DNA from: Escherichia coli 042 | GTDB lineage: Bacteria > Pseudomonadota > Gammaproteobacteria > Enterobacterales > Enterobacteriaceae | Direction: 5' to 3' (one strand) | Length of the DNA stretch: 64,000 nucleotides | NCBI RefSeq assembly: GCF_000027125.1 | Contig: NC_017626.1 | Part shown: one piece after another, positions 26,787-27,455 of the stretch | Numbering within the stretch: the stretch's first letter is position 1 | How the letters are laid out: every line of letters starts with the position of its first letter | The notes under the pieces: model-generated | Told to the model about the DNA's origin: nothing | Databases searched by the model: none | What the model saw: the letters and a program-made list of their open reading frames with translations, nothing else | Program-made: the position numbers and the translations under genes

Positions 26787-26953
26787 TTGACCCAAATCGA
26801 AGTTACGAACAAGAAAGCGTCGAGCGGGCTTTAACGTGCGCTAACTGCGGTCAGAAGCTGCATGTGCTGGAAGTTCACGTGTGTGAGCACTGCTGCGCAG
26901 AACTGATGAGCGATCCGAATAGCTCAATGTACGAGGAAGAAGACGATGAATGA
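26783..26953 (+). CDS. ninF: NinF-like protein
   Basis: Probable GTG start after RBS GAGGAAAA; [47 protein letters not shown]; track ORF starts upstream at 26741. Confidence 0.7.
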
Positions 26954-27455
26954 TGTTAAAGAAAAAGATATCCCCGGCTTTGAGGGTATATATAAAGTAA
27001 CTGAAAATGGAGACATCATTTCATGCCGTAAATCAAAAAAATTATCTCATGGCATTAAACCAGGAGGATATGCATTTGTCGGTCTGTATCCAGGTGGCGG
27101 GAAAAGACCATCATATAAAATGGTTCACAGAATTGTTGCAGAAGTATTTATTGATAACCCAGATGGCAAACCGGAAGTTAATCACAAGGATGGAAATAAA
27201 CTTAATAATAAAGTTGAAAATCTTGAGTGGGTAACGCGAACAGAAAATGCGAAACATGGATTTGATTCCGGGTTGCTTGTTCATGGTTTTAATCATCACT
27301 TCTGCAAACTAACGCCAGAACAAGTGAAATCAATATATAAATCAAAAGGCAAATACAGAGATATAGCCAAAGAATTTGGTGTTTGTGCGCAGACAGTGTG
27401 CAACATAAAAAACAAATCAGCGTACCGACGTTTTTTGGAGGGGATTGATGTTTAG
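26946..27455 (+). CDS. HNH homing-type endonuclease
   Basis: 169 aa in a low-GC island; NUMOD/HNH-like motifs (HRIVAEVF...NHKDGNKLNNKVENLEWVTRTEN) plus C-terminal HTH-like tail. Confidence 0.7.
   Translation: MNDVKEKDIPGFEGIYKVTENGDIISCRKSKKLSHGIKPGGYAFVGLYPGGGKRPSYKMVHRIVAEVFIDNPDGKPEVNHKDGNKLNNKVENLEWVTRTENAKHGFDSGLLVHGFNHHFCKLTPEQVKSIYKSKGKYRDIAKEFGVCAQTVCNIKNKSAYRRFLEGIDV

Follow-up and report, generated by a model that had tools for sequence, protein, structure and literature searches.

The DNA analysed here is a stretch of 64,000 nucleotides (nt) from Escherichia coli 042 (RefSeq assembly GCF_000027125.1, contig NC_017626.1), below referred to as the window. In the nin region of a lambda-like prophage, between ninF and rusA, it contains a gene for an HNH endonuclease of 169 residues. 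We suggest that this is a free-standing I-HmuI-type homing endonuclease gene that acts by intronless homing, and we consider this probable. The evidence comes from the family, fold and conserved catalytic residues of the protein, from purifying selection, from the sporadic distribution of the gene, from its linkage to a small nuclease-like gene here called Y91, and from the gp66-type stubs and one recombinant junction found among its relatives.

An I-HmuI-like HNH endonuclease

The gene and the parts of its product are:

26946..27455, plus strand: free-standing I-HmuI-like HNH endonuclease gene, 169 residues, ATG start (Pfam, PHROG and fold)
26964..27089, plus strand: NUMOD4 segment, residues 7-48, with strands E6-8, E16-19, E24-26 and E43-47 in the structure model
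27117..27251, plus strand: HNH_3 catalytic core, residues 58-102, which holds N79, H80, N92 and N101
27315..27443, plus strand: C-terminal four-helix region, residues 124-166, with helices H124-132, H137-144, H148-155 and H161-166

A sequence-only reading had seen HNH/NUMOD-like motifs in this open reading frame (ORF). Both motifs score above the Pfam cut-offs, HNH_3 (PF13392) with 42.2 bits against 24.8 over residues 58-102 and NUMOD4 with 29.2 bits against 23.4 over residues 7-48. The protein also matches PHROG 59 "HNH endonuclease" (E=1e-50), and an identical protein is named "NUMOD4 motif-containing HNH endonuclease" in RefSeq (WP_001000608.1). The ORF is real and not a chance ORF. By sequence, the family is that of the HNH_3 or I-HmuI-like His-Me finger endonucleases, group 2 of Jablonska et al. 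2017.

The only solved relative found at significance by sequence is I-HmuI (PDB 1U3E, E=9e-19, residues 6-121). The AlphaFold model, built from 54 homologues, has a pLDDT of 94.6 and consists of N-terminal strands, a beta-beta-alpha core and four C-terminal helices. Its only significant fold match in the PDB is again 1U3E (E=5.7e-10, TM score 0.58), and as this alignment covers 164 of 169 columns, the whole architecture is I-HmuI-like, beyond the HNH core. By analogy with I-HmuI, the NUMOD4 segment would be a DNA-binding region. In the model, the four C-terminal helices probably form a helix-turn-helix DNA-binding domain; a sub-threshold match to the CENP-B_N helix-turn-helix covers residues 139-157, and the fold alignment with I-HmuI takes in this region.

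The sequence-only reading had left the catalytic residues to be decided by alignment, and on the alignment to I-HmuI they are present: H80, N92 and N101 correspond to His75, Asn87 and Asn96, and the only change is Asn79, where I-HmuI has Asp74. In I-HmuI, His75 serves as general base, Asn96 binds the metal, and Asp74, beside the catalytic His, is the second metal ligand. The I-HmuI residue numbers used here were counted from the alignment; beyond that count they are reportedly those given by Shen and colleagues in 2004. N79, H80, N92 and N101 are invariant across the 54 aligned homologues. The asparagine that matches N101 is an experimentally validated catalytic residue (PMC9410903).

Among lineages, the proportion of nonsynonymous differences (pN) is 0.09-0.28, while that of synonymous differences (pS) is saturated at 0.6-0.9. 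The ratio of the two rates (dN/dS) is 0.03-0.125 where computable, which is for few pairs only, as dS is saturated for most. Since nonsynonymous change is far below saturated synonymous change, the protein is being maintained by purifying selection. None of the 21 full-length copies examined is disrupted, and each has 0-2 substitutions. In one locus from IMG/VR, L030, an in-frame deletion of 330 nt (window 27107-27436) has removed the nuclease core and left a remnant of 59 residues. The sequence resumes exactly at 27437, so that the Shine-Dalgarno sequence of the following gene, Y91, is kept.

A rare two-gene cassette between ninF and rusA

The features that define the locus are:

26783..26953, plus strand: ninF, 56 residues, GTG start (Pfam NinF, 47.1 bits; coordinates from the homologous coding sequence of phage Dewey)
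27437..27443, plus strand: GGAGGGG, Shine-Dalgarno sequence of Y91, within the 3' end of the HNH ORF (read from the sequence)
27448..27723, plus strand: Y91, gene for a 91-residue small His-Me-finger (YbcO/DUF968-like) nuclease with a CxxC...H...CxxCH pattern (PHROG 131)
27720..28082, plus strand: rusA, Holliday-junction resolvase gene (Pfam RusA, 62 bits)
26954..27719, no strand assigned: segment that differs from HK97 and mEp043, consisting of the HNH gene and Y91 (pairwise blastn and junction read-outs)

The HNH gene starts inside the 3' end of ninF (ATGAATGA), and the overlap with the ninF stop reported by the sequence-only reading holds, with the ATG at 26946 and the end of ninF at 26953. 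This overlap is 8 nt long, and so is the overlap with Y91 at the 3' end of the HNH ORF. The HNH gene is a separate ORF between ninF and Y91, and both flanking genes are complete. An Rfam search of positions 25000-29500 (E<=0.1) matched no RNA family, and so no group I intron; the HNH gene is free-standing. The low-GC island is also real. The HNH gene has a GC content of 36.5%, and 27.6% at third codon positions, compared with 47-50% in its neighbours (ninF 50.3%, rusA 49.3%). Y91 is intermediate with 43.8%.

"YbcO-like", the label that the sequence-only reading had given to the downstream gene, is fair. Y91 matches PHROG 131 at 6e-31, and its matches to Pfam YbcO and DUF968 are weak (E about 1e-3, under the cut-off for both). 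It is 29-30% identical to HK97 gp66. As judged from these comparisons, Y91 is a distinct small nuclease-like family in the same slot upstream of rusA, and it is presumed to be a functional stand-in for HK97 gp66/ybcO. The HNH gene and Y91 are each single-copy, and no gp66-type gene or stub was found elsewhere in the window.

Comparison with the phages HK97 and mEp043, which lack the HNH gene, shows where the variable unit begins and ends. Identity to both phages extends exactly to the end of ninF (26953). From the first base of rusA (27720) on, the DNA is again 97-98% identical to both, and rusA is the likely right-hand homology arm. Between these two genes, HK97 has roi and gp66, mEp043 has a 70-residue ORF and a gp66-type gene, and the window has the HNH gene and Y91. 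The unrelated alternatives in this slot have the same ATGA(A/G)TGA junction, and the slot is a general position for mosaic cassettes. The sequence-only reading had described an inserted HNH gene and proposed to look for the ninF-rusA interval without it. The HNH gene is indeed optional and the flanks are homologous, but the unit that differs from HK97-type phages is the HNH gene together with Y91 and not the HNH gene alone, and different genes lie between the flanks instead of a clean empty site.

The HNH gene is both optional and rare. When the 1.5-kb segment from ninE to rusA was searched against phages, 421 phage records matched. Only two of these lambdoid records contain the HNH gene, the P22-like coliphages Dewey and Louie, which are cultured phages announced in PMC12243541. 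Among 5426 complete E. coli genomes, 33 carry the gene at >=95% identity (30 of them at >=99%), with ninF adjoining in all. The HK97 gp66/ybcO-type gene is present in 955 of the same genomes (~18%). Universal presence at this position, which would have spoken against the insertion proposed by the sequence-only reading, is thus not seen in either set.

In every locus of the close subfamily, Y91 comes directly after the HNH gene, but Y91 can also be present without it. The window allele of Y91 occurs in 36 E. coli genomes, 33 with and three without the HNH gene (RM8082, DETEC-S565 and NCTC9104). In these three (loci L005-L007) a different ninF overlaps Y91, only the right flank is shared with the window, and the homology starts at 27457, one base past the HNH stop. 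From their sequences, they resemble the products of crossing over in the conserved 5' part of Y91, about its first 10 codons (2480-2520 in these loci). The 3' end of their ninF variant overlaps Y91 by 23 nt, and the N-terminus of their Y91 reads MAIYRSSKW, not MFRSKKW.

Y91 is carried by 41 loci from IMG/VR. The HNH gene is found in all 21 loci with a Y91 of 99-100% identity (one of them ended by the contig edge, another being the L030 deletion), and in two of the 20 loci with a Y91 of 77-81%, the other 18 being without it. When the HNH-carrying loci L039 and L057 were compared with the 18 HNH-less Y91 loci, the DNA identity was 72-78%, too diverged to define a recent insertion. HNH homologues at 61-75% identity are found in prophages of E. 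coli, Salmonella, Klebsiella and Citrobacter, all of them directly upstream of a Y91 homologue (62-81% identical) with an overlap of a few bases. In this subfamily, the gene upstream of the HNH gene varies (NinF, hypothetical ORFs, a 658-residue DNA methylase or DUF1367), and beyond Y91 either RusA or a Q-like gene follows. Across the loci, the identities of the HNH protein and of Y91 to the window rise and fall together. Two divergent HNH members (57-58% identical) have a RecA_dep_nuc-type small nuclease downstream instead of Y91, at 2040-2402 in locus L142 and at 2018-2311 in locus L143. Among 80 IMG/VR loci with an HNH_3 gene, a Y91- or gp66-like neighbour was found only in the four closest ones (72-99% HNH identity) and in none of the other 76 (<=54% identity). 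The linkage between the HNH gene and Y91 is therefore lineage-specific.

Truncated ybcO-type genes and a proposed homing model

Many relatives of the HNH gene contain the remains of a ybcO-type gene. When 24 subfamily members were aligned with the window protein, at least 16 of them were seen to start with a ybcO/gp66-type N-terminus, unrelated to NUMOD4; in these homologues of 57-75% identity the stub is fused in frame to HNH at codon 13-17. In a comparison with 120 ybcO-type proteins, several of the stub 13-mers match different natural alleles exactly: MANLRKEARGREC, MADLRKAARGREC, MANLRKEAKGREC, MSNLRKEARGREC, MSKLTKAARGREC and MSKLTKLARGRDC. With tblastn, stubs of 15-16 residues and 93-100% identity are found directly before the HNH gene in loci L061 and L062. 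The HNH gene of L142, which is followed by the RecA_dep_nuc-type gene, also starts with a ybcO-type stub (MSKLKKLARGRECQV).

A recombinant junction is seen in two IMG/VR loci, L021 and L035, and in E. coli QML220601. Here, an HK97-like ninF-roi-gp66 arrangement is broken after nt 29 of gp66, and gp66 nt 1-29 are joined to the sequence of the window from 26931 on, i.e., 15 nt of the ninF tail followed by the HNH gene, Y91 and rusA. Taken together, these sequences suggest that a ybcO-type gene was repeatedly truncated within its first ~50 nt and replaced by an HNH gene plus a non-ybcO analogue.

The genomic signatures of homing endonuclease genes include variable presence, in-frame deletions, and sites beside conserved genes or at exchange boundaries (PMC10448857), and all of these are found at the HNH locus. 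The selfish, homing-type nature of the gene, as proposed in the sequence-only reading, is thus supported by its sporadic presence, the in-frame deletion, the position at a gene boundary and the recombination scars in a neighbouring gene family.

We suggest the following mechanism. The HNH protein would be an active, monomeric, metal-dependent and sequence-specific DNA endonuclease, most likely a strand-specific nickase and not an enzyme that cuts both strands. The nin operon is delayed-early in lambda, and with this position the protein would, by lambda biology, be made during lytic growth. In a co-infection, or upon infection of a lysogen, (i) the enzyme would cut a related phage in its common ybcO/HK97-gp66-type gene, at the 5' end (~first 50 nt), (ii) the break would be repaired with the HNH-bearing genome as the source, with the left crossover in a short gp66 5' stub or in ninF and the right crossover in rusA, and (iii) Y91 would be copied in together with the HNH gene. 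As a 30%-identical analogue without the target sequence, Y91 could then take over the function of the lost gene. Some exclusion of related phages, as suggested in the sequence-only reading, might accompany such an exchange.

In its most specific form, the HNH gene would belong to a gene-replacement homing cassette of the ybcO slot, with the 5' end of ybcO/gp66 as the target, Y91 as the immune replacement and the stub as the left homology arm. Judging from the sequence comparisons, we regard this form as possible rather than probable. The HNH gene would then spread with 13-17 codons of its victim joined in frame to its 5' end, and this stub may provide both the translation start and ~45 nt of left homology, suited to phage Red/RecT-type recombination. 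The carried analogue, Y91 or the RecA_dep_nuc-type gene, would be non-homologous to the destroyed gene, restore its function and be immune to cutting.

Several observations weigh against homing. The copy in the window is without a gp66 stub, and its borders are ordinary mosaic junctions at gene boundaries, as are those of roi; recombination at conserved gene ends would yield such borders without any nuclease. The exact empty site, i.e., this ninF allele abutting this Y91 allele, was not found in the 5426 E. coli genomes. For locus L008, which is of the in-frame-stub type, no empty/filled pair was found in the E. coli genomes, where only its ninX/ninF part was matched. In E. coli, the HNH cassette is ~3% as frequent as the gp66-type gene, a rarity not expected of an efficient drive. 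The gp66 stubs could all go back to a single old fusion, with ordinary recombination homogenising them afterwards. Further, the HNH gene and Y91 have co-diverged past synonymous saturation, which fits an old, vertically linked pair equally well as repeated co-conversion. Finally, the I-HmuI metal ligand Asp74 is replaced by Asn79; this asparagine is invariant in 54 sequences and is therefore the norm of this branch and probably not a lesion.

The strict co-occurrence and co-divergence with Y91, together with strong purifying selection over a very deep divergence, could also be explained by a domesticated nuclease that is useful to the phage and would not be a mobile selfish gene, either in a recombination/replication module with Y91 and RusA or as a weapon against phages, prophages and satellites. 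Translational coupling, with an 8-nt overlap on each side, and a setting among the recombination genes ninB, Y91 and rusA would agree with a module. I-HmuI-like nickases do serve in conflicts between genetic elements, as PLE NixI nicks the DNA of ICP1 (PMC9410903). However, many phages have Y91 working without the HNH gene, more than 99% of the related phages are without it, and one relative (L030) has lost the nuclease core by an in-frame deletion. Gene replacement has left scars, in the form of the ybcO-type stubs and the L021 junction, and such scars would be unexpected of a fixed module. We therefore find domestication unlikely.

Still less likely, in our view, is that the cassette is passive cargo, shuffled like roi by homologous recombination at gene boundaries, with an enzyme that, even if active, would not promote its own spread. 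The common junction of the unrelated alternatives in the ninF-rusA slot, the low frequency of the HNH gene and the HNH-less loci L005-L007, which resemble simple crossovers in the conserved 5' region of Y91, all agree with this. It leaves unexplained, however, the constant tie to a non-ybcO-type replacement nuclease, the frequent in-frame ybcO-type 5' stubs from several alleles and the illegitimate junction at nt 29 of gp66. Further, decay would be expected of a nuclease that has no use, but dN/dS is at or below about 0.1.

That the protein is a terminase-associated packaging HNH of the HK97 gp74 type (an HNH protein required for cos cleavage is often encoded by lambdoid and HK97-like phages; PMC3592412), or the ORF of a group I intron, is hardly credible: the gene is located in the nin region, with terS (31956; terL at 32456) 4.5 kb further downstream, belongs to HNH_3/I-HmuI with no match to the Zn-ribbon family PF01844 and is absent from most relatives, while ninF and Y91 are complete and Rfam matched no intron.

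The prophage setting and related systems

The host element is a lambda-like prophage of ~40 kb, from position 13189 to about 53600 of the window. It contains a lambda-type integrase gene (13189-14259, minus strand), a cI-like S24 repressor gene (21058-21690), the replication genes O and DnaB-like (22590-24784) and terS/terL (31956-34189). The chromosomal flanks are an aconitase gene (9417-11702) and a class-III aminotransferase gene (54567-55967). At the far end (50835-53583, minus strand), a gtrA-like gene (GtrA_DPMS_TM), a gtrB-like gene (Glycos_transf_2) and a 490-residue ORF without a Pfam match are found; by sequence, this group looks like an O-antigen glucosylation (serotype-conversion) cassette.

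On the plus strand, the order of the genes in the nin region is ninB, a PAPS-reductase-like gene, ninE, ninF, HNH, Y91, rusA, ninH and Q. The two nin genes upstream of ninF, both identified in the Pfam/PHROG scan, are:

25325-25765, plus strand: ninB
26604-26786, plus strand: ninE

The PAPS-reductase-like gene (25702-26607, plus strand; Pfam PAPS_reduct, PHROG 33262 at 5e-112, GC 40.7%) lies between these two. A Dam-type DNA methyltransferase gene takes its place in HK97, in Dewey and in the EC190329 prophage; this is another swapped cassette of the operon. In two of the IMG/VR loci, L023 (about 1900-2445) and L030 (about 940-1486), a second gene lies inside ninF and splits off its last ~52 nt, which still precede the HNH gene. 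The C-terminal end of its product resembles an AP2-type DNA-binding domain, as judged by eye. Locus L009 has an extra HNH_3 gene of 182 residues upstream. The nin region of these relatives collects several nuclease genes.

The literature searches returned no work on the HNH protein or Y91, nor any on homing by HNH enzymes in the nin region, and a survey of lambdoid phages only noted that HNH genes are sporadic and apparently mobile (PMC12315714). The HNH gene has a public annotation already, and neither its family nor its likely role is of a new kind. In the literature searched, no mention of its partnership with Y91 or of the ybcO-type stubs was met. There is much work on homing endonucleases of lytic phages, T4-like and some others. 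To our knowledge, their role in the mosaicism of temperate lambdoid phages has hardly been tested, and the HNH gene is a specific and checkable case, as the two cultured phages Dewey and Louie carry it. If the homing model is true, it would explain one recurrent mosaic junction of the nin region, provide a concrete driver of nin-region mosaicism in temperate phages and add a new enzyme with site specificity and probable nicking activity. In its most specific form, the model would also describe a modified intronless homing, with a linked "resistant allele" that comes from a different gene family. If the model fails, the gene is one more annotated HNH endonuclease.

Among known systems, the closest to the protein is I-HmuI of the Bacillus phage SPO1. 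The two are of similar length (169 and 174 residues) and have the same order of an N-terminal beta domain, an HNH core, helices and a helix-turn-helix. I-HmuI forms a group of HNH nicking homing endonucleases with I-HmuII, I-BasI and I-TwoI, and its catalytic His and Asn are conserved in the window protein. However, the I-HmuI gene resides in a DNA polymerase gene, within a group I intron, while the window gene is intronless and lies between ninF and Y91. Further, the identity in the fold alignment is ~29%, and the residues Asp74 and Asn79 differ.

NixI, from the Vibrio phage satellite PLE, has the same HNH/N catalytic motif as the window protein (PMC9410903). It shares ~10% identity with I-HmuI and is a weapon against the helper phage, not a homing gene (PMC9410903). 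The signatures listed for the putative homing endonuclease genes of ICP1 (Barth et al., PMC10448857) match the window locus. Y91, in turn, resembles the YbcO/DUF1364 and DUF968 nucleases (DLP12 YbcO, PDB 3G27; HK97 gp66) in its CxxC...H...CxxCH pattern and in its site upstream of rusA or Q, but it stays under both Pfam cut-offs and is only 29-30% identical to gp66.

The genomic arrangement is like that of SegF, SegB, SegG and MobE of the T-even phages, where a free-standing nuclease gene also lies between conserved genes, is sporadic and is inherited with the adjacent DNA. These enzymes act in intronless homing or localized marker exclusion, in which the nuclease-less allele is cut and the homing endonuclease gene is copied in with its flanking markers (PMC2790892, PMC2330249, PMC2988022). 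The enzymes themselves are different. The Seg proteins are GIY-YIG endonucleases and the Mob proteins are in a different His-Me group from I-HmuI (Jablonska et al.), while the window protein is of the I-HmuI type and comes from a temperate lambdoid phage. Further, instead of a near-identical resistant allele, the gene inherited with it is an analogue of 30% identity, which would take the place of the presumed target gene. Finally, and unlike the T-even genes, many members of the window family carry the 5' stub of their presumed target as an in-frame fusion.

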